A stretch of DNA of 64,000 nucleotides from Marsupella aquatica (Eukaryota; Plantae; Marchantiophyta), in contig OZ316895.1 in assembly GCA_973895155.1 (NCBI GenBank), forward strand, positions 16,002,816 through 16,066,815, in the 5' to 3' direction. Each line of letters starts with the position of its first letter. Positions within the stretch are counted from its first letter, which is position 1. A program made the position numbers and the translations under genes. Of the stretch, positions 1,216 through 62,980 are shown piece by piece. Under the pieces are notes generated by a model that ran no database searches, was not told the origin of the DNA, and saw nothing but the letters and a program-made list of their open reading frames with translations.

Positions 1216-1679
1216 CTCCATTTCTTTGCCTAGGGCTAGAAACCTTCTCTACAACTAACGACATCGGGCTAATAAATCTTTTTAGAGTCAACTCGTGAGG
1301 AGATGCTACGGTCAGTTGACTCAGTTCTGAAATGGAATGATCGAGGGTTTAGGGTCAGGGATCTTGGACTCCAGGGTTTATGAGGTTTGAGCCTTTGAGA
1401 GCTGAGTTGGCCTTGAAGTGATCGACCGAGCTCGATGGCCTAGGTGATGGCCACAAGCCGATGATGTAGTCCTTCAGGGACCCAATCAAATTGCCTTCGA
1501 CCTCTAGTGTGCGGGAATTCCCAGATAATGGATCCATACTCCGGGAGTGATTCCGTGGTTCAGAGTTCCTATCCGATTTTAATATTTCGATCCGCTATTT
1601 GGTTCTGATTTTGACCTTCAGAGGCGGAATTGAATAACGAGGATTAGGGTTAAGGTCGGGTGCCAGTGCAGCTACAGCA

Positions 1680-14100: not shown

Positions 14101-17100
14101 TTAAGGGGGAACCAAGAGTTTTGCATATGGCTCGGCGGCGAAGGGAGCAGGCAACCACAATTCAGCGGATAGAAGGGACGGCTAATGGAAACCTTCAAGT
14201 AAATGATGGTCAAAAAGCACCTCTTCAGACAGAGCAACCACTTACAGCTCAGATGACAGAGGAGACAGCAAGTGGCGACGACCCAGGATTAAGTCCGATC
14301 CAGTCGCCCTCCGTTGAACGAATTTCTGGTGGATTCTTTGAGGGAGCTAACGGAGTTCCCAGGATGACCCCAAGGACACGGAAGTTGACCGATGCAATGC
14401 AGAATTTCCTTCATCAAAAGGCCACCCTGCTACGCCAATGGAAGGAGTAAGTGTTCATATATCTTGTGTCCATTTGATCATAACTATACAGCTTCAAGTA
14501 TTTGGGCCAACAGCGGTGGTATGTAGACATTGGAAGAGAGGACCTGTAACAAAAGAAACTCATTGGAATACTACATGGAGTTACATTAGAAACTTTTCTT
14601 TGGTCTCTAGACATATCTTTAGTGTAGGGGACTGAACAACTCGGCCGATGCAGGATGGAGCTGGGCAAACTACATCCCATGGCGTTAATTGGGCGAAGCT
14701 GTAAGGTATTGTCAGACTTGTGCGCTCAAGGATATATTTTAGGAGATTTCCATGTTGCAGATGGTTAGAGCTGTGAAATCTTGTAAAGAGGATGAGAACT
14801 CCTGTTTTTCCTTTGTCCTTAAACAAGGCTTCTTTTTTGCTTTTTACTAATCCGAATGAATGGAGGCCTTTGTCATCACCACTACTGTAAGATAACGCCT
14901 GTTCCATTTGCTATTTTCCTGACAACATGCCGGCCTGGAATGCGCAGATTTATTGGCCGCTGGACAGTGAATGGTATCCAGGAGTCATCCACGAATACAA
15001 TCCACAGACACGGAGGCACCGGGTGAGGGCGGATTCTGTTTAGTCAAAGCTATCCTATAGTTCAAACAGAAATCTATGCTATCACCCAGTTCTTTTCCTG
15101 GGAAGATTTCTTACATGTTGTGATTACTGCTTTCTTGCTTTTGCAGTGTGCAGTATAGTAGTAGATTTCGCACTTCCCGGCAATGTGCAAAGAATCCAGT
15201 TTTACCCTATCAAGCCCTGCTATTATGTTAGAGAAGTGAAGACAAATTTTTTTGGAAACTGGATACAGACACTTGCCTTACTCTAATTAAAGCTTAATTG
15301 CGGAAGATGGATGGAAGAAACACTTTTGTTTGAGATTTTCTAACCAGCCATATAGGAATGAATCTACATTTTTTCACTGTCAATTTGTTATGACACTTAA
15401 TTTTAGGTAGTCTTCTCGCTGTGGTTAAAGTCGTTATTAGGTATTCTTCTCGCTGTGGTTCAAGTCGTTTTCTAATCGTTGGACATTCTAACCTCATTGG
15501 ATTTTCTGATTTGCTCAGATTGACTATGAAGATGACGAGAGGGAATGGGTTCTTCTTGGTAAAGAGCGAGTCAAGCTCCATGTGTCAGCTGAGGAGAGTA
15601 AATACTTGGAGATGTCTTTTGGGGAAGGCTCTCTGATGAACCAGAAGAAGAAGTTGGATGCCGATGAGCTAGCTGTTTTAGCAGGTGGCATTGAAGGGTG
15701 TCATGGAGAGCTTAGTCATGGTGATCTTGTTTGGGCCAAAGTGAAAGGTGGGTTGCGAACACGTTTGAGGTTCTATTTCTACTATCAGATGACGTGCACT
15801 GGGAATTAAGGCTATTTTGCTATCGTTGAACTGTTGTGGGGTTATAAAGGACTCTGTTATTGCACTAGTTGATTTTTAACTCCAGGAAACGATGTTTCTT
15901 TACGTACCCAGGGTATCCAATGTGGCCGGCTTGCGTGATGGATGAGGAACACGCAATTGCTTGTAGGTTGGAACCTTCTCCTCGAGAAAGAACCGTGCCA
16001 GTCCAGTTCTTTGGTAGCTATGATCATGCCAGGTACTTTCCAAACTCAAATTTACATTTCCTTTCTTGGCCTCTTTAAAACCATTGTTTGATCCCTGATG
16101 ACTGTTTAGATGAATGTTTAAACTCTATAGGGGATATTCATGCCGAAATAAAATGCTCTCCAGGACATGGATAAACCATCTGTGGCTTAGGGTTATACTA
16201 TTTCCTAGCGTCTGTCTTGTTATTACTTGTCTGTGATTTTTCATTGATATACAAGAGTTGTTGTTTTCTACAGAAGTAGCACTGTAAAGCGATTATGCTA
16301 CACATTGATCACATAATTGAACTGGCGCTGGCAATCATTGCAAACGTCCGCATACATTGTATTTTTGGTGTGGGGATGTCATATCAGGCGGCTGGGGTCT
16401 GAGGAATGTGCCAAGTGTTTAATCCAGCTTTGAATATTGTCAATATCTGTCCTTACTGCGAACATCTAACTGCGCTGGTGCTAATGTTGTTCATGTAGGA
16501 TCAATTCGAAGAAGGTTGTGCCGTTTGCAAAAGGCATTATGCACAAATATCATACCAAGTGTAAAAGAACTGTATTTGAGCAAGGCCTGCAGGAGATTGA
16601 AAGGTATGCAGCTGGGATTGATTCCAACTTTCAGTAGTATATTTAAATGTCTTTGACAATAGTTGGCCCAAGAGATCTGTTTGTGTACAGCTGGGATTGT
16701 TTAACTCTCAGCTGTAGATTTTGAGGTCTTTGAGATTAGTTGGCCCAGCAGATTTGTTTGACAATTTCTTCGGCTCAAAGGTTAAAAGGTAGTTAGATGA
16801 AGTGACGTTGATGGTTACTTTTGGGTGCTAATATTAGTTTATCCGCAGTTTGCATAAAGTTGGAAATCTAGCCGGGTTCATAACAACGAAGACTTTTTGT
16901 CCCAGGTACTTGAAGGAGTGCAAACTCCCAGAACAAATGGAGCTCCTAGAGGAAGATGTGGAGGCTCTAGTGAACAAGAAGGCAGATGACATGACTGGTA
17001 GTGAAGAAACTGAGGAAGATCGGGATGGTTTCAAAGATGGGAGCAATAATGCAGGGAAGAAGACTGGGGACACCTCGTTAACATTTCCACTTGAAATTGG

Positions 17101-32303: not shown

Positions 32304-33604
32304 ATGGTTCTTTCAAATGAGGAACTTGAAATCATTTTGTCAACAATTCTTGCATTCCAACAAGTGGTAGAGCAGCAAATTAATGCGATTTGCAGCTCTT
32401 GTTGGTAACTATTTTTTGGAATCAGGTGATGGGAGACTCCTTGCAAACTTGTTTATACTCTTCCAAACCATTCAACATGCATTTTCCAGAGACCATCGTC
32501 TTCTATCTGACAATTATATCGAGCCCAGATCTAGAGAATGGAGTGGCTGGTACCTTATGCATGTTATCAAAGACGATCTTGTCCGCTTCAAGCATTTGTT
32601 TCGCGTGTCACCCGCAACATTCATGTACATTTGCAACTTGGTTCGAGAAGATTTGACTACACATCCCCCACCTGGCCTTCGCAATTTGACCAACATGGCA
32701 TTGTCCGTTGAGCGACAAGTTGCCATAGTGCTGCATAGATTTGCTACTGGGTGTTTGTTGTTGACACTTTCGGAGATGTTTGGGGTTTCAGTTCCATGCA
32801 TTTCTGATGTGATTTGGCGATTTGTTAAGGCATTAACAAGACGCGGTAGAGAAAGACATTTGAGTTGGCCGCAAGGAGAGGCCATGGCAAGGGTGAAAGA
32901 GGAATTTTGCCAATTGCAAGGATTTCCAAATTGTTGTGGTGCAATTGATGCTACTCATTTTCAAGTGGAGTTACCTCTTGGAATAAACTCAACTGATTAT
33001 CGTGACTACAAACATGGCCAAAGCATTTCGATGCAAGCCATTTGTGATGGTCGACTTTGATTTTTGGATGTCTTTGCAGGATGGCCTGGTAGCATTCAAG
33101 ATTCACGACTTTTGAGAGTCTTAGGTTTTTATGATGACATTTTGACACAACGCACAAAACTCTCTGGTCCCACATTTACAGCTCCGACAGGAGTATATTA
33201 TTGGTGATGCTGGCTACCCTGCTTATCCTTGGTTGCTAAACCCTTTTCCAGCAACTAGAGAGCATAGTCAAAAGAGAGAGTTCAACTACAGGCTTAGCTC
33301 AACTAGGATGTGTGTGGAGCGTGCTTTTGGTCAAGTGAAAAATAGTTGGAGATTTGTTTCTCGCAAAATGTTTTGGCCGCATTCATATCGATTGCCACAT
33401 TATATTACATGTGCATGCCTTTTGCATAACATTCATATTGACCGTGGAGATGTATATGATCCAGCATGGGGTATAGATGCAGACCCTCCATATGAACCTG
33501 GAGGTCCCCCTGCTGCACCTCAAACTTCAAATAATGGGCGTAGATATCGTATTGCAATGATGAATCATTTGCTACCTGAGGGAGAATGGGGGCATGAAGC
33601 TTAG
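32304..33604 (+). pseudogene. Harbinger (HARBI1/DDE_Tnp_4-like) transposase, disrupted
   Basis: Motifs FRVSPATF, LSVERQVAIVLHRFATG, GFPNCCGAIDATH, GWPGSIQDSR, IGDAGYP, FNYRLSSTRMCVERAFG and CLLHNI. Frameshift near 32385, in-frame TGA at 33058-60, frameshift or deletion near 33185. Confidence 0.9.
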
Positions 33605-33783
33605 AGTGTGCTGCCCGAGTTGCCAATAGATGTAATAGACAATGATGAAATTTAATAAAACCAAACTGTGCATGAAAATGGCACCATATTTTATTCATGT
33701 GCAATTGTATGTTGTCATTTCAAGAAGTACACTTGACTAAAATGGAAGTAGTTGCTTCTCTAAACCAAGTATGTGCAGCTACT

Positions 33784-34923
33784 CTATTGGGATGGTCGTG
33801 AAGAATTTGCTAGCTTCTCTAGAAGAATGTCATTCAAACGTCCCATCTGCTCAGCTGTTGTGGTTGATGTTGTGGTGATTGTTGTTGCCAAAACAGCAGA
33901 TTGCCGCTCACGGCTTTCACAATCAAACTTGGCCATGGAAACCATCTTTGCACAACTATTGGCCATGGATTTCAAATGTGCTTGTTTGTCGTTCCCAATC
34001 TTGGCTGCCTTTCGCTTTACACCTCTATTGCCGGGGCCAGAGAAGTCCTGAGGGGATGATGGTTGCTGCACTCCATCTGTACTCTCTGTATTTGGTTGCG
34101 CCCTCTCATGTGTTGGTCCTGTGAAATGTGTCTGGCTTGACGATGCCGACCTGTCTTCCTCAACCCCAACATCATCATCACCTGTAGAATAGTATAGACA
34201 TGATTCCTTGCATTTAGTAGAGCAAAGAGGAAGGAGAGAAATGTCACCCCAAAAATTTACAGTACCAATCCACCATAACAAAAATTAAATTGCACAATGT
34301 AAATGAAAGAAAAAATTCATCAGGTAGGAAAAAATAGATTACTCACTTCCAGATGACAAGTTGAATGGGTCCTGGTTTGTATTGTGGTTCATCCTAGAGT
34401 AATCAGATAAAAACTTCGTAGGTGGCGTGATGCGTGGAACATCTTTATACCATCCCAACAGATTTGCATACAGATCAACTGAGAAATGAGTCGGGAATTG
34501 TTGTAGGCGTCGCTCCTTCTCATCCATGTCAAAGTAAGAAATCTGCCTGGTCTTCTCCTTTTTCTCATAATCGTAAATCTTTTTGAACTTGCTGTCAATG
34601 AGCTGCCACTTCTTCTTGCAAGAGGATGGATCTCGAATAGGTCGGGTGAACCCCTCATCCTCCATAAATTTTGCCACGGCCTTCCATTTCAACTTGGTGC
34701 TAGTCATCTTTTGTTGCGTAGAACCCTCCATGATAACATTGAGGTGTTCAGATCGCTTGGCTGCAATCAAGCACTTCATCTCCTCATTTGTCCAATCAGG
34801 CAACTTATTCTTGATTGGAGGTTGTGGTGCACCGTTAGGACCTGTACCAATGTTGAGGTCCAAGTCAACTAATCGAATACGTTCTCGTGAAGGTAGACCA
34901 CGGCTCTGCTTCTGGCTCGTCAT
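33784..34923 (-). CDS. Harbinger Myb/SANT-like (trihelix) DNA-binding protein; exons 34923-34347 and 34181-33784
   Basis: WTNEEMKCLI...KWKAVAKFM...RDPSSCKKKWQLI is the trihelix/Myb-SANT tryptophan pattern. gtgagt donor and tctacag acceptor are phase-compatible. Convergent with the transposase, as is common in Harbingers. Confidence 0.85.
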
Positions 34924-35077
34924 CTGACATTACACAGTAGTATGCAAGAGACACAATTTCAGAAGCAAAAATTCATAAACAACTCTTGCGCAAGTGAACT
35001 CATTAAATTCCAAGTAGACATAAGATTCACATTTCATTTCAATGCATACTTAAGTACATCCCAACTTTATTCAAGTA

Positions 35078-36200
35078 CTAGCTCAATACCCGTGCGTTGC
35101 ACAAAAGAAGTCATGTCGGCCAAGATGTCGTTGAGAAAAAAAGATGTCGTGTCGGCCAACAGGTCGTTGAGAGAAAAAATGTAGTGTCAGCCAAGAGGTT
35201 GTGGAGAGAAAAAGATGTTGTGTCGGCCAAGAGGTCGTGGAGAAAAGAGATGTAGTGTCGGCCAAGAGGTCGTGGAGAAAAAAGATGTAGTGTCGGCCAA
35301 GAGGTCATGGAGAGAAAAGATGTTGTGTCGGCCAAGAGGTCGTTGAGAGAAAAGAAGTCGTTGAGAAAAAAAGATGGCCAAGAGGTCGTTAAGAGAAAAG
35401 AAGTCATTGAGGAAAAAATTTGTCATGTCGGTCAAGAGGTCGTTGAGAAAAAAGATGTCATGTTGGCCAAGATGTTGTCAAGAAAATAATTGTCATGTCA
35501 GCCAAGATGTCGTTGAGAAAAAATATGTCATGTCAGCAAAGACATCATTGAGGGAAAAGATGTCATGTCAGCCAAGACATCGTTGAGTGAAAATACTCGT
35601 GCATTGCACAAAAGATGTCCTTGAAATCATTTTGCCAAAGATGCCATTATGTGAAAGATGTTGATAAGAAAAATGTGTCATTTTGCCAAAGATATCGTGA
35701 AGTACAAGATGTTATAAAGAAAAAAAAGGTGTCATTTCATCCAAGTTGTCATTATGTGAAAGATGTTATGAAGTAAAAAGTCAAGGAGAGAAGGAGCAAG
35801 TCTTTTTCTTTGTTTGTTTTTTACCCAAAATGCCCTTGCATTTGAATGGCGACCACTCTATACATTGGCGCAATGTTATATTATCGGTTTCAGGTTTAAG
35901 GTTTTAGGGTTTAGCAAAGATGACCATTTTATCGCTATCCTTTCAATCCCCGTGCGTTGCATAAAAGATGTTGTTTGGTTAAAGATGTTGTTTGGTTAAA
36001 GATGTTGTTGAGAAATAGCTCATGGTGCAAAAGATATCATTGAATAAAAAATTGCACAAAACTTTTTGTTGAATGAAAGATATCATTGTGCAAAATACTG
36101 GCCACGGCAGCCACAAAAGTTCCCTTTTTCTTTTTTCTCCTTGCACAAAAAAATTCTTTGAATAAAAGACGTCATTGCGCAAACCACTGGCTATGACAAC
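35078..36200 (-). mobile_element. Non-autonomous Helitron-like insertion(s) with internal minisatellite; 3' end at 35078, 5' end undefined
   Basis: Minus strand ends ...gtgcaacgcacgggtattgagCTAG|t (hairpin gtgc-aac-gcac, spacer, CTAG followed by T), the canonical Helitron 3' end. Degenerate copies of the same end at ~35592-35610 and ~35942-35962. Confidence 0.65.
35105..35590. repeat. Minisatellite, ~33-35 bp unit (gtgtcggccaagaggtcgttgagagaaaaagat), >10 copies
   Basis: Directly visible tandem units; explains the repetitive spurious ORFs 35083-35586. Confidence 0.9.
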
Positions 36201-49559: not shown

Positions 49560-50895
49560 TCGCGGGAAACAGCTGCTGGGATTATCTCTCCATTATTTGG
49601 TCGTCTACAATTCTTCTCTCACCTTACTTCATCTTTCCGACAATTTCTTTAATTGGAGGAATTCCGACCTGTAGGGCCAACTGTTCCAACCCGTGTGCTG
49701 GACCTATGAATCAAAAAATCATCCTACTGGAACTGACGGCACGCTCGAATCTGCAAGAGCTCAACCTGTCTGGGAATGCGTTGACACACGCTACTTTTCT
49801 GTCACTTTTGAATCTATTAGCGTTGAGAGTCTTAGACATAGGACATTAATCTTTTTTGCCTTGAAAACCCAAAGCAGGCCCATCCAACATAGGATAGACG
49901 TCCTGCTTTGGAGCATGCATTTCCATGTAGGGCAGCCACAAGGGGACAATGCTTTGGAGCATGCATTTCCATGTAGGGCAGCCACAAGGGGACAATACCC
50001 AGGGATCCGACAGGGACCCAGACCAGGAGGAAGAGAAGATTAAACCAGAACCCAAAGTGGGCAACCAAGGCTGAGGAGATAATCAATACTCCCACCACTA
50101 CACCCCACCCACACACACACACACATACCCTCCACACCCCTTATGTGTGGAGGGAGGATTGAACCTGGGACCTCTCGGTTCTAGGCTCATCCTCTGGCCA
50201 ACTGACCAAAGCCAGTTGGTTAGCAGACATTAATCTTATGACATTGTCCTGTGGTGAATATTGAAAATCAGAGACCCTCAATTTGAGCAACAATCAGATT
50301 TCTATTACCGACATATTGATTTTTCAATGGCTGCAGAAGTCGCAGACACTTAGCTTGAAAGCTAATTTTTTTCTCAATTGGGATCAATCCCACGATCTCT
50401 GGGTGCTGTGAACGGGGCTCTGAAGACCCTTCGCTTCCTTTCACTACGCTATATATAATCTGCTTTCAGGAGCGATCCCCAAAGAGCTGGGAACTACCCA
50501 GAATCTCACTGATATAGTACCTGCTCCTCTAGTCCATTGCTCTTCTCTCAGTGTAGCACTTATGTCCGAGGATCTCTAAACTGGACAAACAGTCGCTGAC
50601 ATTGGCTTGTTATCTGAGCTCCATGCCAGGCCGTTTACATAAGGAACAAAAGTTTAACAGGCTCCATCTCTCCCAGCCTGTTGGAGTGCACCTCTCTCTC
50701 TTAAATAATCTTTAGCTTCAATTTCTTTAGTGGGGCAGGAGATTCCTCTGGCATATATTGGGTGCGCTGAGCAAAGTGGAAGATCTTCTTCTCCATGTCC
50801 TCAATCTCGGAGGTGGAATTCGTGCCTCTAGGCAACATCTCCAGTCTTCATGAAGTTTTCCTCAACAGAAGCCAGTTCATTGGATACCTTTGATC
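49560..50895 (+). pseudogene. Degenerate plant extracellular-type LRR gene fragment (LRR-RLK/RLP-like), interrupted by a SINE
   Basis: Frameshifted LRR remnants: LHLSDN..LIGGIP, LQELNLSGNALT, LRVLDIGH(N), ETLNLSNNQIS, GAIPKELG, LSFNFFSG..EIP, GNISSLHEVFLNRSQFIG. Confidence 0.75.
49854..50225 (-). mobile_element. tRNA-derived SINE, ~370 bp, 12-bp TSD
   Basis: Minus-strand head has A box TGGTCAGTTGG and B box GGTTCAATCC; short A tail. TSD gacattaatctt at 49842-49853 and 50226-50237. Internal ~46-bp tandem duplication at ~49905-49996 and a (CA)n run. Confidence 0.85.
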
Positions 50896-51063
50896 ATTTT
50901 AAATCATGAGTGCCCATCAAAAACTATAACAACAGGTCATCTTATATATCAAAACAGAGGGCGCCAAACCGGGAGACCTGATCCCTCAGGCAAAAGACCC
51001 AATCAAGGGGGGAGACCACCAAGGGGCCAAGAAAAGCAAACCCAAAGACAGGAACCCAAACGC

Positions 51064-51743
51064 CTACCTATCAGCAAACTGGAGAGCCTGGTAAAGCTCC
51101 GGTGTGAACTGCATGGGGGGGTCAAGCAAAGGAATCCTACTAGTGGCCCTAAGACCAACAGCCTCCCCCCTACGAAGAATAGTGAATGCCTGTGCCCGCT
51201 GAAGCGCAACAGACACCCTCTGTCTAAAGAATGCAGTGATGACCGACACAGGGGGATAGGGCCTCCGCTCGACGTACTGAACTGCGCAAGAGCGAAGAAA
51301 ACGATCAAAGGATGGATGTAGCGCCCCAAAGACCTCCACGGCAAACGGATAGAAGAGGTCCTCGGGGTACCGCACAGCATAGGCCTCCTCCTTCAGCCGA
51401 GCTGCCCTCGCGGCGGCATGGCCTGGTACATGAGCCACCGAAGCCACGTTGGCCCCACAAGTCGGATCAGCAACAACGACGTCCCCAAGGGCACGAACAC
51501 CAGCGCGAGAGAATACCAGATCTGCTCGACGACGATCAGAAACCCCATCCCGTGGAGGTAACACATGTCTCTGCTCCTTCATGATATGGTAACCAGAGTC
51601 ACGGGCAATGGCCGCCACCACGTCCCGAATGTCGTCGTGTGTCGCAGTCCTCTCACTACCATGACCGCACCTGAGAATGTGAATGCCTTGCCCATCAAGG
51701 GGCGCTCCACAGACGCAAGTGGGCTGACCCAAGAGGCAAGGGT
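51064..51743 (-). pseudogene. C-terminal CCHC zinc knuckle and restriction-like endonuclease domain of the CRE-like LINE
   Basis: CVCGAPLDGQGIHILRC, ATHDDIRD, RRADLV, DVVVADP, KEEAY and FYPFAVEVFGAL match the RLE (PD..D-type) motif series. Confidence 0.85.
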
Positions 51744-52440
51744 TGTCATGCCGAGGGACAGTGCCTCTTGTGCACATCGGCACGTCCCTCGCATGCCCGC
51801 TAGGTATGGTTAGGGCTAGTTACTACTTGAGTTAGTGTCATGTTCTTGTAGCGAGTCTGGGCTATTCTTGAAGCAAAAGGGGTTTGTTAGTGTGACGCCT
51901 GGACCCGGTCCTACTTAGGGCATGTTTTTCTTTGCCGTTCTGCAGTTCTTCTTGAATCGCTGTGAGATAGAGTTTTTCAGAGGCTGCTCGTCGGTTCCGT
52001 ACACGGAATTCACACAGTGATTCGTTAGATGCTCCCGGCTGATCTTGGCATCTCGCCGGTTTTCGATTTGATTTCAGTACGTTTGTTTCTATCACGCTTT
52101 TTATTCAAGAAGAACTCCCTGTGAAATGTCAGCGGCAGTTGTATCTTACGTGTATACACATCAGGGAGGGACCGTTTTTGTTGTTTTTATTCCTTTTTAT
52201 TTTGACCCTCTTAGGCAAGGCCGACATACACGGGGCCAATTTCATTCTCTTTAGCCCCGGCCTCCTTGCCTCACGCCGTTTATTTTATTTGTGGGTTAAT
52301 TTTCTAAGCCTTGGGGTTGCCATTTCTTTTCTTGTCAGTTTCTTTCCCGACAACACCAGATACCACCAGACAAAGAGGGGGGGTGGAGACATTTCCTGTT
52401 GCTACCATTTCCAATTTGGCACCCCGGGTTAGCATGCAGC

Positions 52441-55400
52441 ATGTCAGCAGAGGAGTCGAGTCGTAGCAGCTCATCGCCACCGACACCTCGATACCACTTA
52501 CGGAGTGATCCACGACCATTGGTGCCAATTTCATTGGAGTCTCGGCAATTTTGACAACGTCCATAGACAGCAGCAGCACCCATACCACGCAATCCTTCTG
52601 CTCAATTTGGCAGTCGCTTCACCACTACCCCAAAGCCTGTTATCGCTTCTCTGCCCTTTACTCCTTTTGCATCAGTGGTTGTTCCAGCTTCACCGACATA
52701 CAACATGGATGCCAGCCACTCATCTGGCCGCATTGAGCGTTTCAGCGGGCGGCCAGGTACTGTTTCTTTGCGTGAGTTCAAATCCACTTTCTACACTGTC
52801 GTTTACGAATTGGAGTTGAAGTATGGCAGCAATTTCATAAATGCTTTTGCATTTAAGCAACTAGCCAGGTATGTGCACCACGAGGCTTTGGATGTGTATG
52901 AGCAGCACTCTCAACGGCTGCTTGCTGTCACACAATTGCCTAACCCTACCTATGCCACTGCAATTGTGGCTGCCTCACAACTGGCATTACAGAATGCCAT
53001 TGCAGCCCATGCTGCTGCTCCTGCCACTTCCCCTCCTACTCCAGTTCCCACCACTGCACCAGTTACTCCCACTGTCTTGGCACAGGCTACATCAGGCATT
53101 TCTCCCACCATTGATTCTCCTACCTTTGCTGATCCAGTGGCTGAGTTTTTCCAGGTTCTTGAATTGGAATTCCCAATCAAGAGTGCTGACAAAATCATGC
53201 AGTTGGCCACCTTTGTGAGGCAGCGCGATAAAACATTGAAGATGATGTATCGTCGGCTTCTCAAGTTGAAGGAGGACACCCAGAGCATCACTGATCTGGA
53301 AGCTGCTCATCGCTATCTTGGCACATTGGAGGGCACACCAGCTCTCCATTCGCAAGTGTTGCAGCAAGTATTCTCAAAGTTTGGAGACAGCTACACTTTG
53401 CTCAATGTCTATGACACTGCTGAGAAACTTGAATTGGCCCATGCACATTATGAGGCCAGTATTGCGCGTCCATCGCGATCCAGGTACCAGGCTGCTGCCC
53501 CTCCACTAACCACCCCTTCCCGTGTGCCACAGTATGGTTCCAAGCCCAAACCAGCCCATGCTGCTTTCATGCTGTCATCTTGCAACTACTGTGGTAACCC
53601 CAATCACAAGGCTAATGAATGTGATATTGTTGCTGAGGACCTGTCTTGTGATTTTTGCGGGAAAGTGGGTCACTTGGAGGCAGTTTGTTTTGCCAAATTC
53701 CCAGAGAGGAAGTAGCTACGACAGCAGGCCCCTCATCCTACTCCTGCTTCCACTCCCCCACCAGCTAGGAGGGCTCCTACTGCATCAGTTGCTCCTCCTT
53801 CCAGTGGCAAAGCACCCGGTGCTAACAAATTGCCCAAGCAGCAACAGAAGCAACCAGCTCAGAAGGAGGCTCACAATGCACAGGCAACTCAACTCCAGTC
53901 TCTGACTCATGAGGTTGAGTCATTACGTGCCCAACTTGCCAACATCAAAGGCAAGTCCACTGTCTCTACTGGTCCTTCTCAACCTGGCCCAGGCACCACT
54001 GACAGTTCAGCACCCATTCCCCGCTCTTTCTATGGCTTGCCCTTTGATGCTCATATGGGTGAGTGTGTGCTGTCCTCTGCTACACAGCCCGGCCTTACAG
54101 CAGAATTTTTAGATTCCTTCTGCCTTTCCTATTTTGCTTACCAGCAGGCCAGTGCTGCCTCCTGTATTGCTCCCACACGCCGCATTGTACAGGCTGATGG
54201 TCTTGCTGCTGGTCCTATGACTAGAGCCAGGGGAGCTCGGGCTGTCATGCCCCAATCTTTTCAGCCACTCACACTTGCTGAAGAGCGCACCTTGTTGGCG
54301 AGGGGGGAGGGAGTTGCAGCTACATCCATTCCACCACCAGGTGCTGCTGACATTTCACAGGGAGTTGTTTTTCCTGAGCTGCTTGAGCATTTCACCTCCG
54401 GTATGGCACAAAGGATTCTTACCACTCCACTTTTCAGTTGCCATGATTTACAGCTGGATGCTAGAGCTGTCATCAGAGCGCTAGAGGGCTCACTGCATTC
54501 TTCATCAGCCCCTGTGACACCGGTTTTGGAGGTCCAATCCCATGTATATACTGGACCTTCTTCTTCTCCATTGCATGCTTCCACTGGTTTGGCTATACCA
54601 GTACCAATTTCCAGTGGTAGAGATGACAGTATTGCTACAGATTGTGTGACCAGAGCTACACTTGATTCTGGTCATGCTGCTCCATCTTTCCTGGCTATGC
54701 TGTTGAGTGGGAAGACCGTGGACACTAACTCCCTTCACAAGGTACCTCATCATTTGCCAAAAGTGGTGCCTATTGACAGGACTTTAGTTTCCACCACCAT
54801 TGCCATTGTTGACAACAGGAATTCAGCAGTCAAGTTGGAGGGTCACACTCCTCAGGTGGTCATGCTAGACATAGGCGCTCAACCAGTAATCTTGGGCATT
54901 CAGTTTGCCAAGAAGATGGGACTGCTGACTGATCATTTACAGCAATCTAGGTGGCACATTCGGACTGCTAGTGGCACTGTGGAGGATGTGCTGGGTGAGA
55001 TTTCTACTTTACTCACTCTCACTTTTAATGGAGGTACAGATCAGGAACTGCATTTCCCAGTCAGATGTTTGGTTACCAATGCCACTACGTATGATGTGCT
55101 CATTGGGCAGGAGGCTTTGTTCCCACCAGGTTTTACCATTGACAACTGGCATGAGCATGCATACTACAGAGTTGATTGGCATACGGATGGCTCACACTTG
55201 GGATACATTCCACTTGATTTGCATGGTGCCCATACCCCTATGGCTCACCACTGTGTGTTGAAAGCAGTGCACACAGCTACCTATGTCAACCACCCATTGC
55301 AGGATTGGATTGAGGAGGATGATGATGAGGTGGCTACTGCACATGCTGCTGCACGTATAGCAGCACTTTCCAGCAACGTGGATCATCAACCAGAGGTGGT

Positions 55401-56292
55401 ACAACGGCTCCAAGCAGCCCATGGACCTTTGGTGGCTGCATTGCACAAATTTGAGGACCTTGGGCAGCATAATGGACAACCAATAGCCCCAATCTTGAGC
55501 GTACCAGTTACATGGACTCTTCCTTCAGATGGCCTTACATTGCTTGAGCTTGTTGGTGGCATTTCTACAGGCCTGGAAGCTCTCCTAAAGTCTGGCATGG
55601 TGGTGAAGCAGTACATCTATGTGGATATTGATCCAGGTGCAAGGCAAGTGGCTGAATCCCGTCTGCTGGACTTTTCAGAGCGATTTCCCCAGCAGTTTCC
55701 ACATAGTGCATGGAAGTCTGCATTTTCTTTCTTCCCTCCAGATATCCAGCTTGTCCAGCACCGGCACTTAACCCTTCTTGGCTCCCTTGATTTGATCATA
55801 GCTGGTTGGGAATGCCAAGGGTTTTCAGCTGCTGGTCACGGTGCTGGACTGCATGATTCTCGTTCTGGCCTTTTCACAGCATTGGTTCAGATTCTCACCT
55901 GGGCTCAATCCCTTTATCCTGCTGTTGGTTATATCATTGAGAATACTCCATCTCAGTTTGACCAGCGTCCACAGGTCAAAGAGGATTTCAGTGTGGTCCA
56001 GCACTACTTGGGACCACCCCTTCTCATTGATGCAGTGCACTGTGGTTCTTATGCACATCGTCTTCGTAACTTTTGGACTAACCTTGCACCACCTTCCTTG
56101 CTGGAGATGGCTCTTCACCACACATCCAGGGACACTAACCTTACAGTGGACCAGATTTTGGATCCTGACAGTTCTTGCCAACCAGTTACACGGCAAGAAC
56201 CAGCACCTTGGTATCCAACCAATACCATTGGACAATGGAGAGGCTGGCACTTCTGGCTCTTTAAGCATGAGTACATCAGGTCCTATTCCTAG
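52441..56292 (+). pseudogene. Gag - aspartic protease - C5 cytosine methyltransferase frame, interrupted by 3 stops
   Basis: One frame from ATG 52441 (MSAEESSRSSSSPPTPRYHLRSD) with stops TGA 52552, TAG 52564 and TAG 53713. Two zinc knuckles CNYCGNPNHKANEC and CDFCGKVGHLEAVC (53581-53688). Protease MLDIGA (54862-54879) and YDVLIG. DNMT motifs at 55534-56240. Confidence 0.88.
55534..56243 (+). other. C5 cytosine DNA methyltransferase domain (motifs I-VIII plus start of the target-recognition region) inside the retroelement polyprotein
   Basis: Motif I LELVGGISTG, II YIYVDID, III PDI, IV LIIAGWECQGFSAAG (catalytic Cys 55813-15), V DSRSGLF, VI YIIENT, VIII AHRLRNFWTNL, in the correct order and spacing. 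Confidence 0.9.
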
Positions 56293-59200
56293 TGTTGCCA
56301 ACTACACATTTATCATGGGCAACCACCTGAGTAAAAGACAGAAGGACCAGCTGCTGAATTTGCTCCTCAAGCATGAGAATGTGTTTGCTTTCTCTATGAA
56401 GGACTTGGGTAAGTGCAAGACTATGCAGTTCTCCATTGAGTTGGCTGATGAAACACCTATCTTCAGGCGGAGACACCGTTTGAGTAAGCATGAGTGGCAG
56501 TTGGTGGATGAGAGGTGCCAAGAGCTTTATGAAGCTAGTCTTATTCAGCCATCTACATCAGATTTTGCGGCAGCTACAGTGATGCCAGCAAAGAAGGATT
56601 CCAGTGGATTGTGGACAGAGAAGCGCATGTGTGGGGACTACAGGCCATTGAACCTGGTCACACCCCAGGACAGGTACCCCATGCCATGGCCAGAGGAGCT
56701 ATTTGACAGCATTGGAGACTCAGACATCTTCACTCTTGTGGATCTAAGGCAAGGCTTCAACCAGATTTTGCTGCTTGTAAAGGACCGCAAGAAAACAGCT
56801 TTCCATGGTAGTAACCAACTATGGGAGTGGTTGGTGATGCCATTTGGCTTGAAGAATGCGCCCATATTCTTTCAAAGAGTCATGGACCAGGTTCTTCAAG
56901 GTGCTGAGTTTCTAAAATGCTACATTGATGATGTGTTGGTCCACAGCAAAGGATTTGACCAGCATCTACTTGACCTTGAGGAGCTATTCATGAGGCTTAA
57001 GAAGGTGAACCTAAAGATACACCCCAAGAAGTGTGAATTTGCTGTCAAATCAGTAGTATATCTTGGGCATCGCATTCTTCCAAATGGAACCATGGCTCAG
57101 TGGGCCAAGGTGGTATCCATCTTGGAAATGCCCACTCCTACCGATGTTCACACTTTGAGGAGTTTTATTGGGTTGTGCAATTACTACCGGATCTACATCA
57201 AAGATTTCAGTACCATTGCACACCCATTGTACTCTTTGTTGAAAAAGAATGTGCCTTGGACATGGAGTACAGATGCTGAGGCAGCATTTGCCACTTTGAA
57301 GGAGAAGCTCTCAGAATACCCAGTGCTAAGAAGACCTGATTTCAGCAAGGTCTTTGTGCTACACACAGATTGGAGTGCCCTTGGGATTGGTGCCATTCTG
57401 GGCCAGCATGATGAGGAAGGTAAAGAGTACGTCATTGCCTATGCATCCAGGAGCAACAATCAGGCAGAGAGTCATTATTCTTCTTATGAGGGTGAATGCC
57501 TTGTTGTTGTGTGGGCTGTCATACATTACAGGCCCTACCTCTATGGGACCAGGTTTGTTCTCTACACCGACCACCAGCCCTTGAAGTGGTTGATGACCAA
57601 CGACAAGCTTACTGGCAAGCTTGCTCGTTGGGCGCTCATACTCCAGGAGTATGATTTTGAGGTAATTCATAGGCCTGGTGTGACACATCAAAATGCTGAC
57701 ACTATGTCCCGCAGCCCTTTGATTGCCTCTGATGATCCCTCAGATGCACGGCAGGATTTTGACCAGGTTTCCATCCTGCCTACATTTCATGCATCTACCT
57801 ATCTTGCTTTGCTGCCATGCTACATTGTTGACCAACCTGTGGTGGACATATCGGAGGACAGCGACACTCTGAGATTTCTGCAAGATGGGGAGTACCCCAC
57901 CCATGTTACTGCTGCCCAGAGAGACCGAATTCAGCAAAGGTCCAAGCACTACTTGTGGAAGGGAGATCATCTTGTGCGCTGCTTGCCAGACAGGGAAGTG
58001 GTGGTTCCACCCATTCATGAGAGGGTTGGCCTTATCCGCAAGGTACATTCTGAGCTTGGTCATTTTGGTGTTAAGAGGACTTATAGCCTCTTGGTCCCCC
58101 ATTATCATTGGAGAGGCATGCATGGTCAGGTTCGAGATGTTATTGCCCGGTGTGAGCAGTGTGATAGGGTAAGGACTTCTTTCACATCTCGGCAATCCAC
58201 ACTTCATCCACTCCCTATTCAGGGCATGTTTTATTGTTGGTCATGTGATTTGGCTGGAGAATTACCCCTCACATCTCGGGGTAATCTCTACATCATGATC
58301 ATGATAGAGCATTTCTCCAAGTGGATAGAACTTGTGGCATTGCCGTATAAGACCTCCTGTAGCACCAGCCAGGCATTCTTGCAACAAGTTCTCAGCCGCT
58401 TTGGAGCTTGTGCAGAATGTCTCACTGACCAAGGCTCAGAGTTTAGAGGAGAGTTCCAGGAGCTGCTTGATCAGGCTCTCATTGATCATCGCCGGACATC
58501 ACGAGATCACCCACAGGCAGATGGCTTGGCAGAGCGCATGGTTCAGACATGCAAGAAGGGCCTTCGGAAGATCTGCCTCACCAAAAACAAGGAGGATTGG
58601 GACCTGGCCTTACCCTACATTGCCATGGGGTATAGGATGTCCAGACATGCATCACTGTCTAACTTTTCTCCCTACTTCTTGTTGTTTGGTCGTCACCCAG
58701 TTCCACCTTCTGCTATTGCTTCTCACGTGCTTCAGGTGGTGGACTTGGATTCAGTTGTGACTTGGTCTGATGTGATCTTTGAGAGGGCTGCCCTATTCAG
58801 GAGGGTTATGCCCATGGCCATGGAGAATTTGGCCATTGCACAGCACAGGGACACACTGCGTTATGCACACACACGAGGGGGCACTTTTCAGCCCAAGGTC
58901 AGGAAGTTTGAAGTGGGAGATTTTGTGTACTTGCAGCGGCAAGCTAACGACACCCTGGACACCTCTACCAGTCGCACTATTCTCAGGGTCAAAGCTATTC
59001 GACCGTCTGGAGTGCTAGAGTTACAAGGGGCAGATGGGCGCACAATTGCTGACAATGCCAAGAATTGCGCCCCTTGTCATCTGCCTAACCTGGATCCCAC
59101 CATTGTGACTTCTACTTGGATTCCACCTGTGGACTACCCTTGCAAAGTGTGTTTGCGAATTGATGATGTTGACCAGATGCTGCTGTGTGACAATTGCAAT

Positions 59201-59293
59201 GGAGGGTACCATCTTTTCTGCCTTCGGCCTGAACTTACCCAGGTGCCAGAAGGGTTATGGTTTTGCCCTTCTTGTGCTCCACGTGCTATCTGA
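56240..59293 (+). CDS. Pol: reverse transcriptase, RNase H, integrase, C-terminal PHD finger (uninterrupted frame)
   Basis: RT RMCGDYRPLN, DLRQGFNQ, VMPFGLKNAP, YIDD (56921). RNase H LHTDWS, YEGE, YTDHQPL, NADTMSR. Integrase HSELGH..CEQC, SCDL, TDQGSEF, GLAERM. PHD CKVC..LLCDNCNGGYHLFCL..VPEGLWFCPSC (59141-59276). Confidence 0.93.
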   Translation, partial: EAGTSGSLSMSTSGPIPSVANYTFIMGNHLSKRQKDQLLNLLLKHENVFAFSMKDLGKCKTMQFSIELADETPIFRRRHRLSKHEWQLVDERCQELYEASLIQPSTSDFAAATVMPAKKDSSGLWTEKRMCGDYRPLNLVTPQDRYPMPWPEELFDSIGDSDIFTLVDLRQGFNQILLLVKDRKKTAFHGSNQLWEWLVMPFGLKNAPIFFQRVMDQVLQGAEFLKCYIDDVLVHSKGFDQHLLDLEELFMRLKKVNLKIHPKKCEFAVKSVVYLGHRILPNGTMAQWAKVVSILEMPTPTDVHTLRSFIGLCNYYRIYIKDFSTIAHPLYSLLKKNVPWTWSTDAEAAFATLKEKLSEYPVLRRPDFSKVFVLHTDWSALGIGAILGQHDEEGKEYVIAYASRSNNQAESHYSSYEGECLVVVWAVIHYRPYLYGTRFVLYTDHQPLKWLMTNDKLTGKLARWALILQEYDFEVIHRPGVTHQNADTMSRSPLIASDDPSDARQDFDQVSILPTFHASTYLALLPCYIVDQPVVDISEDSDTLRFLQDGEYPTHVTAAQRDRIQQRSKHYLWKGDHLVRCLPDREVVVPPIHERVGLIRKVHSELGHFGVKRTYSLLVPHYHWRGMHGQVRDVIARCEQCDRVRTSFTSRQSTLHPLPIQGMFYCWSCDLAGELPLTSRGNLYIMIMIEHFSKWIELVALPYKTSCSTSQAFLQQVLSRFGACAECLTDQGSEFRGEFQELLDQALIDHRRTSRDHPQADGLAERMVQTCKKGLRKICLTKNKEDWDLALPYIAMGYRMSRHASLSNFSPYFLLFGRHPVPPSAIASHVLQVVDLDSVVTWSDVIFERAALFRRVMPMAMENLAIAQHRDTLRYAHTRGGTFQPKVRKFEVGDFVYLQRQANDTLDTSTSRTILRVKAIRPSGVLELQGADGRTIADNAKNCAPCHLPNLDPTIVTSTWIPPVDYPCKVCLRIDDVDQMLLCDNCNGGYHLFCLRPELTQVPEGLWFCPSCAPRAI

Positions 59294-59512
59294 CTTTTCT
59301 TCAGCCCTCCTTTTGGCTGTGGTCTGGGGGGGATACAGAGGTTTACACCTCCACTACGTACATACCACCTCAGTTGCTCTTTCTTGGCACTTATGAATGT
59401 GATTGGACTTTTTCTATGCATGTTGGTTGCTAGCAGCTTGCACATATGCATTGCCGGTGAGTTGTATGTTTTCGATACACTATGGCTACGATACTATATG
59501 TCACGACAGGGT

Positions 59513-61950
59513 GAGGAAGACCCAACCGAAGGCGCGTGGATGTGGTAAAAATAAAAGAACTCATACGAAAGGGGGCCCAAAGAGGACTCGCCGATAGCCA
59601 AGACCCCGAACCAGCGCCCGAACCGGATAAAAGACGTGCCCGTACCAAATCTGAGGGTGCCTCAGAAAGCATGCTGGAAAGGGTGTGTCGGTGCATGCGA
59701 TCAGAAATCACCTGTTGGACTCGATCCAGGCTGTCCAAAACAACTCCCTCGAAAGCAGGGACCACGCTCTGCACGTCCTCTGGCAATAATGACCGTGCAT
59801 GACGAAGCTGGACCTGAAAAGGGAGAGCTCCGTTCTCCACTCCCATGACCGAGTCAGAGAGGATAGGCCGAAGGTCCACAATGAAACGTGAGGCCAGGGC
59901 AGGGGCCACCTGCGCCCAACTACCAAGAAACGTGCAAGGGGCAGTGTCCACTGCCAAGGCCACCCCCATACCACCTCCCGATGGGGGTAACGCAGCCTGC
60001 CTAGCCGCAAAAGAACCATCCTCTCCATCAAGGGCTCCCGGACCAATGAGGTGACCAAAGACTCTCATCACAGTGGTGTCAAATGAAGAGAGTAAGGACA
60101 GGAACATCACGGTAGGAGGGACTGTCCGGAGAAGATAGGAAGGACGCCGAACAAAACATAGGACCAGGATCAAACAGGAGATCTGGGCATCCCCCATGGA
60201 CACCAACTGGTCAATATGCAAAATGTTCTGGGACAGGGCCGCTAGAAGAAAATCCTGCTCAAAGGCCGCTCCCCCGAAAGGCACCCCAAGGACTCTAATG
60301 CCCTCGAGCCGAATGGGTATACCAAGAGGTGGGGTGAAAGAGTGGGGGAGGGGGAGACGAGACCAAACCCCACACTTCCAAGGCTGAACTGAAAGACCAA
60401 TGAGGGTAAGCTGGTCCACAAAGTGGGAATAGGCGTCCCCAACAAGCAAGACCCGGGCAACAATGAGAGTGTCATCCGCAACAGAAGGAAACATGCAACC
60501 CGGGAAGGCAGCCAAAGAGGCATGAATAGCACGAAGGTGCGCCATAGCAAACAACGCCCCACCAAGGGGGTCACCCTGCCTAGTCCCGGACTCGGATGAG
60601 ATGGTCACATAGGACCCAGGAACAAGATGGTCAGGGTAAACCAGGGGGGTCGGGGCCCCATAGAAGGCCCGGGCAAAGGGGATGAGGGATGCAATCTCCC
60701 CTCCAGCGGCCCGCAACTCCTCAAACATGACCCGACGGGATACAGAGTTGAATGCGTTAGCCACATCCACCTGAATGACAGCCCAGTCGGGGGTGGCCAC
60801 TCCAAACTGGTGAGGAAAAAAGTGTGATGAAAAGGGAGCCCGAGTTTGCAAACAAACACAACGGCTCACCAAGCGGAACAAGACCTCCCCGATGGCCAAG
60901 GGCCTGACACCCCCAGTCTCTTTGGCCATAGCCAGAAGCCGACAGGCCCCCAAAAGCCGAGCAACCACAGGAGGAATACGGCCCCCCGCTACATGGGCAC
61001 AGACCTGGAACAACTCAGAAAAACCAGATGCCGAGTCGTCGGGACAAAAGCAATCGCGTAGGTGCTCGAACCTCATCCCAGAAATCCCGCCCGCGGATCG
61101 GCGGGGTAGATGCAGGAAGACAGAGGAGAACACCTCGCGGGATAGGGAGAACTCGGTCTCAGGGGTAAAGCTCCCAAGAAAACTAGGAACCTCGGATGCA
61201 GCCGGGGGATGAAGAGACCAAAAGGCAAGAACGGTCTCGGCTGAAGGAGGAGAGGGGGAGAGGGGGACCAAGGAGCAGGCGGCCCGAGAAAACTCCCCCG
61301 CCTGTCCCAATAGAAGGCACTGGCGAAGCCTGCACTGCACAGGAGGGACAGATGACTCCTCGACAGGCTCAGAGGTCCGAGAGGCCATCGCTAACAACCT
61401 ATGGTAATACTCCTCATGAAGCAAAGCCCAATCCCCAGAAAGGAACCGCTACAACCGGACCAAGGTCTCCCTATGCCCGGATGCCCCCCCCCCCGCGGAG
61501 GAAGGACCAGCACCCAATGAGGGAGCAGCAGGAGCAAGGACCAAGCCCCAACATCTGAGGGGTCGCGAGCCAAGCGGTCGAAGGGAAGACGAAAGGCTCT
61601 CTGAAGGAGAGGCCGCACGGGCACGGGAATCCTAGTAAACAAACGGGGATGCCAAAAACCGGGATAGAGGGCAGCAAGGACATCAAGGTGAGCCAACCAA
61701 TCCCAAGAGGAGGGAGGGGGCCCAGATGGAGGTGGGGGGAGGACGGGGGGTGGAGGCAAGAACGACGGTGGCGTGTCAAACCTGACGGCCGGTACCAACT
61801 ATGACAAGCATCGCACTGGACACGGGGATCAGAAGGGGAAGTGGGAGGTGAGGAGGGACGATGGCGACGGACGGAAAGAGGGGTGGAGTAGGGGGAAGCC
61901 AGAGGGCGCGGAGTGGGGGGAGGGGAACTCAAAATGGGAAGAGGCTCCAT
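59513..61950 (-). pseudogene. N-terminal zinc finger and RT portion of the CRE-like LINE ORF, with frameshifts in poly-C tracts
   Basis: CDACHSWYRPSGLTRHRRSC zinc finger. RT motifs SAGGISGMRFEHL, AKETGGVRPLAIGE, QFGV, VDVANAFNSV, GTRQGDPLGG, SVADD, GIRVLGVPFG. Frame changes near 61735 and 61485; apparent short deletion between QFGVATP and DWAVIQVD. Confidence 0.88.
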
Positions 61951-62735
61951 GAGAAAATGAAAATATAAAACAAGGATAAAGAAGAAACATATAAAGTAGG
62001 CAAGTCAAACAAAAACAAACAGAAAATATTACTAAAGCGACAACAAAAACAAAAACAAAGGATGGATGACCAAAGCAAAGAACCTCGACCCGGTAGTGAC
62101 AACAACCGCACGTCGAAAAGGACCGCTGCAGCCCCGCGCAAAGGAAGCTGTCGCGGAGGCACCCCCTCCGGGTAGAACACCAAGAAGCCACACCACAACG
62201 AGCTGCCCCAGGCCACGAACCAACCCCGGCACAGAGCCAGGAGAAAAAGCGCCAGACCCCGGGCCAGGGCAGGGCCGATCACCAGGCTAGAGCAGAAATC
62301 CAACCAGCAGAGAAGGCTCCCAAGCACCAAGACCTCCCCCCCAAACAGAACCGAGGGGCCCGGAAAACAGCCCCCAAAGGGCCAAAGCCAGCAGTACGAG
62401 GAGCACCGAAAGAGGAGAACCAAGGATGAAGAGCCCGGGGCCAACAACCCACACAAAAATCCCGGTAAGGGGGAAAGGGGGGGGGGATCCGAGGGTCACC
62501 CCGGCGGAAGGAGCCCCTCTCCGAGGGGCAGGGGGTCCCTCATAATGAGGCCCCCCCAAAAAGGGCCCCTGCGCATGCCCCTCCCTGGCTTCGCCACACG
62601 TCAGCCACCACAGCGCGTCAGCGCCCAGCCGTGCGCAACCCAGCCCACCCCCGCCGCGCTCGACCTCGCTCGCCCGACCCTCCCGCCACTCACTCGCTCC
62701 CCCGCTCCTCCCGACCCCGGTTCGCTCCGCTCCGC

Positions 62736-62980
62736 TCCACTCTTCATAAACTAAGTTTTCCTCAACAAAAGCCAGTTCATTGGATACCGTTGATTTTTCT
62801 TAAATCACAACTGGCCATCAAAAACTAAAAATAAGATTAAGCCTCAAAAAGTATAACAACAGATAGTCTCCACTTTTCATGAAGTTTTCCTCAAGGGAAG
62901 CCAGTTCATAATTGGATACCTTTGATCTGCCCATCAAGAATTATAATAAGCATTAAAAACTATAACAACAGGTCCCGCCA
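62736..62980 (+). repeat. Copies 2 and 3 of a ~105-130 bp tandem unit whose first copy lies at ~50839-50940 on the other side of the LINE
   Basis: ctccaStYttcat..aagttttcctcaa..aagccagttcat..tggatacc..ccatcaa..aaaa.tataacaacag present at 50839, 62736 and 62868. Confidence 0.8.

Follow-up and report, generated by a model that had tools for sequence, protein, structure and literature searches.

A decayed Ty3/Gypsy retrotransposon in a leafy liverwort belongs to a bryophyte family with a DNMT3-like domain in Pol and split terminal repeats

Within a 64,000-nucleotide stretch of the genome of the leafy liverwort Marsupella aquatica (assembly GCA_973895155.1, contig OZ316895.1, positions 16,002,816 to 16,066,815 of the forward strand; hereafter, the window, to which the coordinates below refer), positions 51744-59508 are occupied by a Ty3/Gypsy retrotransposon that carries a DNMT3-like C5 DNA methyltransferase (DNMT) domain between the protease (PR) and the reverse transcriptase (RT). 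This copy is a dead fossil that cannot supply any enzyme, and, judging from sequence comparison, the domain is a family-wide trait under purifying selection. We consider it reasonably probable that, in intact members of this bryophyte family, the DNMT methylates CpG in newly made complementary DNA (cDNA), and that integration proceeds through a palindrome located inside the long terminal repeat (LTR). New here are the presence of Gypsy-DNMT3 elements in land plants, the PR-DNMT-RT domain order, and a split LTR with a putative internal attachment (att) site.

Results

Conservation of a DNMT3-like domain across the family

The domain of the window copy was recognized by the Pfam profile PF00145 with an E value of 4.1e-7 and a score of 30.2 bits, which exceeds the cut-off of 22, and motifs I, II, IV, V, VI, and VIII were located at 55543-56085, in agreement with an earlier note on this DNA, made from the letters alone, which had quoted these motifs and proposed the profile check. 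Motifs I, IV (with the catalytic Cys), VI (EN), and VIII (RxR) follow one another in the order expected of a C5 DNA methyltransferase, and, across the aligned sequences, the catalytic Cys and the motif VI Glu are present in 149 of 149 and the motif VIII arginines in 148 of 149. Sequence comparison and structure prediction both indicate that the domain is DNMT3-like: the top solved sequence relatives are DNMT3C, DNMT3A, and DNMT3B (E = 2e-4), with DRM-type and HhaI enzymes ranking lower, at least 25 of the best 27 PDB sequence matches of protein P0040 are DNMT3A/B/C chains, and the predicted model of the natural, intact domain of locus L003 (predicted local distance difference test score 94.7) has DNMT3A as its top Foldseek match (E = 4e-19, template modeling score 0.75). 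The nearest cluster in the ESM Atlas, streptophyte PF00145, serves as a lead only.

A metagenome scan yielded 514 confirmed matches, the best 80 of which (L001-L080) are referred to here as moss-type loci, a label derived from their close alignment to a Sphagnum magellanicum protein. Motifs I-VIII were found in all 80 loci, and motifs IX and X, which are expected in the DNMT3 class and are deleted from the window copy, in 79; an RT lies downstream in 68, 20 are complete from Gag to the plant homeodomain (PHD) finger, and none of the 80 has the DNMT between RNase H (RH) and integrase (INT). The only stop-free DNMT among them is that of L003, which is in frame with RT and RNase H. These loci also show strong C>T decay, which extends to the motif VIII arginines (retained in 50 and 56 of the 80). 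In Calypogeia fissa, Gag, PR, a DNMT with motifs I-X, and RT form a single annotated protein, CAM6101866.1. The hallmark of Gypsy-Dnmt3 elements, a Dnmt3-like domain that is unrearranged and in frame with Pol, is present in the family and broken in the window copy. Between the DNMT of the window copy and those of L001-L003 (three pairs), dN is 0.21-0.25 and dS 1.8-2.1, corresponding to a dN/dS of about 0.10-0.14; the RT is more conserved than the DNMT (dN 0.10-0.13). The proposal of a Gypsy lineage that encodes a conserved C5 methyltransferase of its own, resembles KnitGypsy-Dnmt3 of the charophyte Klebsormidium nitens, and shares the domain among its members is upheld.

Boundaries, domain order, and decay of the window copy

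Copies of the element were studied through contigs assembled from sequencing runs and through the metagenome loci. The 4-bp target duplication GGGT is present on both flanks, contigs from three of four runs (X1, X3, and X5) are joined across the empty site (joint 51738>59508), and, in X1, 10 contigs with dissimilar flanks all start at 51744, so that the exact boundaries given in the earlier note stand. A MAFFT profile of the flanks left the element ends undefined. Pfam matches within the element occur in the order weak zinc knuckle, aspartyl protease, PF00145, RT, RNase H, H2C2 zinc finger, rve integrase, and PHD (Table 1), and the best solved relative of the RT is Ty3 Gag-Pol (E = 6.6e-90). 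The succession of Gag and PR-RT-RH-INT, the Ty3-like RT, the DDE integrase, the TG...CA ends with a short target duplication (in the window copy and, as a perfect 4-bp duplication, in nine of the 14 loci having both ends), and the internal region flanked by a self-priming-type site and a G-rich tract are all typical of Ty3/Gypsy elements; two full direct LTRs, likewise expected, are absent from the window and from 21 long relative loci. No match to a recombinase family was obtained that would correspond to the tyrosine recombinase of the DIRS order (PAT/Ngaro), the element having an rve/H2C2 integrase, and the C-terminus of the integrase bears no chromodomain of the chromovirus (Tcn1/Tf1) kind, the PHD finger being found in its place.

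The decay of the window copy is evident at several positions. A stop codon splits Gag from PR-DNMT, although both are in the same frame as the earlier note had read them, and contigs from all four runs mostly have a sense codon at this site. The distance from motif VIII to the RT is 250 nt compared to 735 nt in P0044 and P0040, corresponding to a loss of ~485 nt (~470 nt relative to the C. fissa protein, as counted from the printed sequence), which removed motifs IX and X along with the linker and threw the RT out of frame; other copies in the same runs read on past the break point. The RT, RNase H, integrase, and PHD named in the earlier note are all there, but the RT does not follow the DNMT directly, and methyltransferase delivery of the kind suggested there is beyond this dead copy. 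In addition, the F that motif I has in 78 of 80 relatives is replaced by V in the window copy, whose protease motif is DIG, compared to DTG in four relatives (nine examined, five of them without a pattern match).

Table 1. Features of the element and of the retrotransposon that it splits
Feature	Position	Strand	Basis
Left target-site duplication, GGGT	51740..51743	+	Empty-site joint in X1, X3, X5
Repeat A (A1), TG start; inferred 3' half of LTR with promoter, R, and U5	51744..52104	+	A-end/B-start joints
Predicted transcript 5' end and self-primer	51944..51957	+	14-nt perfect complement of 52103-52116
Putative self-priming primer-binding site, adjoining A end	52105..52116	+	Complementarity to site within A
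Gag with zinc knuckle, closed by copy-private stop at 53713-53715	52705..53715	+	zf-CCHC E 0.0027, below cut-off
Aspartyl protease; motif 54865-54879 changed in window copy	54829..55119	+	Pfam
DNMT3-like C5 methyltransferase, motifs I-VIII; IX-X deleted	55534..56235	+	PF00145; motif IV (catalytic Cys) 55804-55827
Deletion junction (~470-485 nt) and frameshift between DNMT and RT	56228..56235	+	Loose contig ends at 56228 and 56235
Reverse transcriptase and RNase H; YIDD at 56921-56932	56297..57720	+	Pfam; Ty3 Gag-Pol match
DDE integrase and H2C2 zinc finger	58010..59080	+	Pfam, PDB sequence match
C-terminal PHD finger, followed by stop	59141..59293	+	PF00628 E 6.6e-11
Polypurine tract, adjoining B start	59321..59332	+	G-rich tract
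Repeat B, CA end; inferred 5' half of LTR; without the x-A2-B2 block of full copies	59333..59508	+	Run joints, long loci
Right target-site duplication, GGGT	59509..59512	+	Matches left copy
Host non-LTR retrotransposon, split by element	50853..62803	-	RT open reading frame 61448>59509 resumes 51743>51064

Split terminal repeats and priming sites

No LTR pair was found within the window. In the run contigs, the end of repeat A (52104) is joined to the start of repeat B (59333) in four of four runs, and also in X11, and, in three of four runs, the end of B (59508) is followed, after a gap of two letters, by a new start of A (51744). The layout of the long relative loci is A1-internal-B1-x-A2-B2 (repeats in 15 of 21 loci, no repeat in six), with A1 and A2 being 84-92% and B1 and B2 80-94% alike; the A-coding-B-A-B arrangement of Gypsy-Dnmt3 is therefore present in the relatives and in the run joints, with the window copy showing A-coding-B only. 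All 20 junctions examined have a spacer x of 2 nt (GC in nine, GT in seven, AC in four), which sits inside the near-palindrome CACGACA-NN-TGTCATG, and two elements of the algal type described below have the same CA-NN-TG palindrome behind a polypurine tract. The A2|B2 joint, surveyed in 14 distinct insertions, is precise in nine, two bases short in three, and altered in two, one of which retains a G of the tract; most of B2 is missing from L031. A full element (L044) and an A-internal-B element (L036) represent one insertion site in two assemblies, the B1 and B2 repeats differing by 6%.

In the window, as in the loci displayed, a G-rich tract directly adjoins B1. Behind A1, a predicted self-priming stem has all 14 pairs in the window copy and 13-14 of 14 in 22 of 32 loci, as opposed to five of 960 shuffles, and the self-primer site has no differences listed in the three runs that cover it. 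The stems of the window copy and of the moss-type loci are separated by two compensatory double changes, and a BLAST comparison of the whole A repeat between the window and the moss-type loci found no match. A TATA box is located 32 nt upstream of the predicted start in 23 of 32 loci. Such an arrangement is characteristic of the self-priming described for Tf1 and Tcn1 (PMC6317226, PMC2864245). The primers at B1 and A1 would delimit a conventional LTR corresponding to B-x-A. A 31-nt, 90% inverted repeat (52107-52137/54342-54372), which connects the primer-binding region with the linker between Gag and PR, was considered as a priming partner and rejected, having no counterpart in the 32 moss-type loci.

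Two domain orders in a wider clade

A four-sequence profile retrieved 453 representatives at E<=1e-30, and the best 150, sorted by domain order, comprised 100 with RH-DNMT-INT, three with PR-DNMT, and 47 that were uninformative, with P0260 (cluster of P0255) being an additional Gag-PR-DNMT case. The PR-DNMT group includes two Closterium proteins, and a DNMT at the PR position is common to proteins of C. fissa, S. magellanicum, and Closterium, whereas the chlorophyte Monoraphidium (KIY99053.1) has the RH-DNMT-INT order. The earlier note had proposed a search for PR-DNMT-RT copies in other genomes; such copies do exist in C. fissa, Sphagnum, and Closterium, but most relatives have the DNMT after RNase H. 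A DNMT tree of 29 rows contains a branch (SH-aLRT support 98.5) that places the RH-DNMT-INT rows on one side and the PR-DNMT rows together with the bryophyte copies on the other, and the window copy groups with the PR-DNMT-RT proteins P0256 and P0258 in both the RT-RH tree (0.999) and the integrase tree (0.998); these trees are quick and unrooted, without host DNMT3, DRM, named Gypsy lineages, or the K. nitens element, and speak to congruence rather than to the order of events. That the PR-DNMT-RT lineage is common to these bryophytes and Closterium suggests that it was inherited through the transition to land.

No named K. nitens element was among 30 proteins looked up. Viral contigs yielded no relative with a single query and, with an alignment query, only phage methyltransferases of 23-31% identity. 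Among bacterial genomes, two of 80 loci (L161 and L162) are algal-type elements and the remainder are distant; these two, found on contigs of bacterial metagenome-assembled genomes, are likely mis-binned eukaryotic DNA. L161 has an extra 713-codon open reading frame 3' of the PHD (10033-12171 of that locus), without a Pfam match, and, in L162 (8464-9516), the polyprotein runs ~350 amino acids beyond the PHD, with a weak Tudor match and adenine-methyltransferase-like motifs discerned by eye.

CpG depletion and the PHD finger

The element is markedly poor in CpG. The observed/expected ratio in coding regions is 0.25 for the element, 0.58 for the surrounding non-LTR retrotransposon (long interspersed nuclear element, LINE), and 0.68-1.02 for host exons, and CpG occupies codon positions 2-3 in 14 of 604 cases in the element, whereas the host LINE has 36 of 260 (p 3.5e-10), the comparison set consisting of the host LINE and host exons. 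No CHG depletion was found in the element. The loss of CpG, mostly synonymous, fits long-term CpG methylation and does not name the enzyme responsible; self-methylation of new cDNA by the family DNMT is a plausible source.

The PDB matches of the PHD include the fingers of WSTF, CHD4, KDM5/Lid, ATXR5, BAZ2B, and UHRF1. The PHD fingers of WSTF, CHD4, KDM5, ATXR5, BAZ2, and UHRF1 are readers of unmodified H3 tails. Because it is located at the C-terminus of the integrase, ~1,150 residues away from the DNMT, we assign the finger to the integrase, with which it likely stays after proteolysis, steering insertion in a chromodomain-like manner. The mobile "writer-plus-reader module" envisaged in the earlier note finds little backing in this arrangement.

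A proposed life cycle and its alternatives

In the life cycle that we propose, the RNA would begin within A1 and terminate in A2, with its first ~12 nt priming the minus strand at the site behind A1, in the fashion of the self-priming retrotransposon Tf1. Plus-strand synthesis would initiate at the polypurine tract and yield a linear cDNA of the form (B-x-A)-internal-(B-x-A), the ends of which (ATA.../...AT) would not be integrase ends, the TG/CA ends lying inside the LTR at x. Joining of the cDNA ends would produce the variable A|B joint, and the integrase would open the CA-NN-TG sequence in x by staggered cleavage behind each CA, creating 3'-recessed ends for strand transfer and, upon insertion, the permuted A-internal-B-x-A-B form. 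As part of Pol, the DNMT would be packaged with the RT and be the first to meet the cDNA, which it would methylate, such that the element arrives pre-marked, and the integrase-borne PHD, likely reading unmodified H3 tails, would choose the site. The A-internal-B form of the window copy is most likely the product of recombination between B1 and B2 in the inserted element, or else of a circle with a single LTR; L044 and L036 show the two forms at a shared site.

Several observations weigh against this scheme. Catalysis, the transcript, and the circle are predictions from sequence, and the dS values of the DNMT pairs are close to saturation. Fewer than 13 stem pairs are formed in 10 of 32 loci, which are decayed copies, and a clear TATA at -32 is absent from the window copy. 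The reciprocal permutation, A-B-x-A-internal-B, was found in none of 32 loci (25 sites) compared to 14 of the observed form, a bias that the model leaves unexplained. The loss of CpG could instead reflect host silencing: the flanks of moss-type elements are CpG-poorer (0.15-0.34) than the elements themselves (0.27-0.43), and algal-type elements show only mild depletion (0.47-0.57). The specificity ascribed to the PHD is that of its PDB matches, and the K. nitens retro-DNMT3 produced no methylation in yeast, a result that its authors deem inconclusive in the text available (PMC5890265).

Copying in the manner of PAT/Ngaro elements, with RNA running from the A1 start to the B2 end, two template jumps, an A2|B2 joint that is copied, and linear TG/CA integrase ends, would account at once for the sole A-internal-B-A-B form (14 distinct right ends and none of 32 loci with B before A1), and the same repeat order is the rule among tyrosine-recombinase elements, as described in parts of PMC6681497. 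We nevertheless regard such copying as unlikely: the polypurine tract at B1 and the self-priming site at A1 imply that the primers define the A|B joint rather than the TG/CA ends, the TATA spacing places the transcript start within A, and the A2|B2 joint is variable across copies while x is a constant 2 nt (20 of 20). A somewhat better, although still doubtful, candidate is that the DNMT mainly methylates the CpG/CHG of CACGACA-GC-TGTC, guarding the integrated junction against a second cut and favoring one LTR copy over the other for cleavage. This could account for the 14:0 bias; moreover, the junction CpG is conserved in liverwort, moss-type, and algal-type elements, the spacers GT and AC are the expected deamination products of methylated GC, and DNMT and split repeats occur together both here and in K. 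nitens. The idea is nonetheless pure inference, and host methylation explains the spacer variants as well. Extended to an old green-lineage clade spanning algae to bryophytes, in which the end-processing of linear cDNA would have given way to a joined intermediate that the integrase opens at an IS3-like CA-NN-TG and DNMT3 methylation would pick the junction to be cut while shielding the integrated one, it is a scenario that we put forward only tentatively.

As for the domain itself, retention for DNA binding or for self-limiting transposition, rather than for marking cDNA before insertion, is in keeping with the inactivity of the K. nitens homologue in yeast and with the host-benefit and RNA roles listed among its authors' options (PMC5890265, in part), but it appears quite improbable given that the catalytic residues are invariant over 149 sequences at ~40% identity, which argues for catalysis, and that the position within Pol favors packaging alongside the RT. 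The idea that one insertion picked up part of a host DNMT3 on a single occasion, which the truncated and frameshifted domain of the window copy might bring to mind, is refuted by the presence of the domain at the same position in 80 loci and in the C. fissa, S. magellanicum, and Closterium proteins, by purifying selection, and by the other copies in the same runs that continue beyond the break. Finally, the A-internal-B form of the window copy might be an assembly collapse of B1-A2-B2 without a true deletion, considering that young copies have identical B1 and B2 repeats and that no contig spans the window copy; yet this copy is old enough to have acquired several private lesions, and L036 and L044 present the two forms at a shared site where B1 and B2 differ by 6% (collapse being possible there too), making a collapse rather unlikely. 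On balance, cDNA methylation and integration through the intra-LTR palindrome remain the reading that we prefer.

Other features of the window

The non-LTR retrotransposon split by the element encodes an RT with a C-terminal Cys/His and endonuclease-like region and is presumably of the CRE type and site-specific. It lies between 51-bp direct repeats of 88% similarity, a further copy of which occupies 62867-62909, and sits in a decayed leucine-rich repeat region. Elsewhere, positions 32371-34929 contain a PIF/Harbinger-type transposon with a DDE_Tnp_4 transposase on the + strand and a Myb/SANT gene on the - strand, possibly bounded by a 51-nt imperfect inverted repeat (30986/38651), and positions 35100-36020 a degenerate ~35-nt tandem array with a strong strand skew. 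An 844-codon open frame without a Pfam match spans 11916-14450 and includes 51-nt tandem repeats at 13095-13247. The first exon of the host UTP6 gene (1638-4509) is 93% identical to that of C. fissa, which bears out the land-plant source proposed in the earlier note, and the identity to the other 30 matches is at most 69%, including Marchantia paleacea (69%) and Ceratodon (60%).

Discussion

With these results, the range of DNMT3-bearing Gypsy elements, hitherto a single charophyte genome, comes to include land plants. They also offer a concrete, testable account of DIRS-like split repeats in a retrotransposon with a DDE integrase; in KnitGypsy-Dnmt3, such repeats were noted and left unexplained in the main text (PMC5890265). 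Because they possess no LTR pair, elements of this kind are likely missed by LTR-finding surveys, and the number of DNMT3 genes annotated in bryophytes can be too high on their account. Provided that the DNMT is active, bryophytes would be genetic hosts in which to test self-marking of transposon cDNA. A literature search that did not extend to Repbase or most subscription journals brought up no account of a member in land plants or of the priming and junction anatomy, and PMC11982613 held nothing relevant in the text available; there too, Sarre et al. 2025 (PMC12344493) and a 2026 preprint (bioRxiv 10.64898/2026.05.21.726589) both cite the 2018 elements of de Mendoza and colleagues as those of "streptophytes", and bryophyte members may be present in their supplementary trees.

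The closest known system is KnitGypsy-Dnmt3, whose Gypsy Pol likewise includes a Dnmt3-like domain that is unrearranged, intronless, and subject to purifying selection and whose repeats, as in the liverwort and moss-type family, are DIRS-like and follow the A-coding-B-A-B order (PMC5890265, main text). Its host is a charophyte, whereas those of the present family are land plants (liverwort and moss), and the main text of that report gives neither a PHD nor a priming or integration mechanism (PMC5890265). The algal-type RT-RH-DNMT-INT-PHD elements (P0001-P0018, L161, L162, and KIY99053.1) share the DNMT family (~40% identity), the PHD after the integrase, and the palindrome; they differ in forming a separate clade by DNMT, RT, and integrase and in that the DNMT comes after RNase H and before the integrase in 100 of the 103 informative cases among the best 150 of 453 representatives. 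Elements of the Tf1/sushi group and plant Tcn1 also have an LTR-derived stretch behind the 5' repeat in place of the tRNA site, according to the portions of PMC6317226 and PMC2864245 available, but possess a full LTR pair and a chromodomain, unlike the liverwort family with its split repeats, PHD, and DNMT. Selgy elements offered no parallel for the PHD, the finger being mentioned nowhere in the available text of PMC6317226.

Split direct repeats of the A1...B1-A2-B2 form are likewise found in PAT, Ngaro, and VIPER (PMC6681497, in part), and a DNMT3 in Pol occurs in SymbioDIRS-Dnmt3 (PMC5890265, main text). The liverwort element is distinguished from all of these by its protease, DDE integrase, 4-bp duplications, and lack of a tyrosine recombinase. 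A joint similarly cut by a DDE enzyme is known from the circle junctions of the IS3 family. The foamy-virus integrase, too, cleaves a palindromic two-LTR circle joint to generate 3'-processed ends, as stated in the accessible part of PMC1180852. In both cases the joint is built from cDNA ends, whereas here the cut would fall at a standing intra-LTR site, with the ends forming a second, non-att joint. Finally, the recently described EpiLTRs are LTR elements that also combine a methyltransferase with a chromatin reader, but theirs is a DNMT4-related enzyme accompanied by DAM and a chromodomain, and their authors, in the part of the preprint available, set them apart from the streptophyte Gypsy-DNMT3 elements (bioRxiv 10.64898/2026.05.21.726589).

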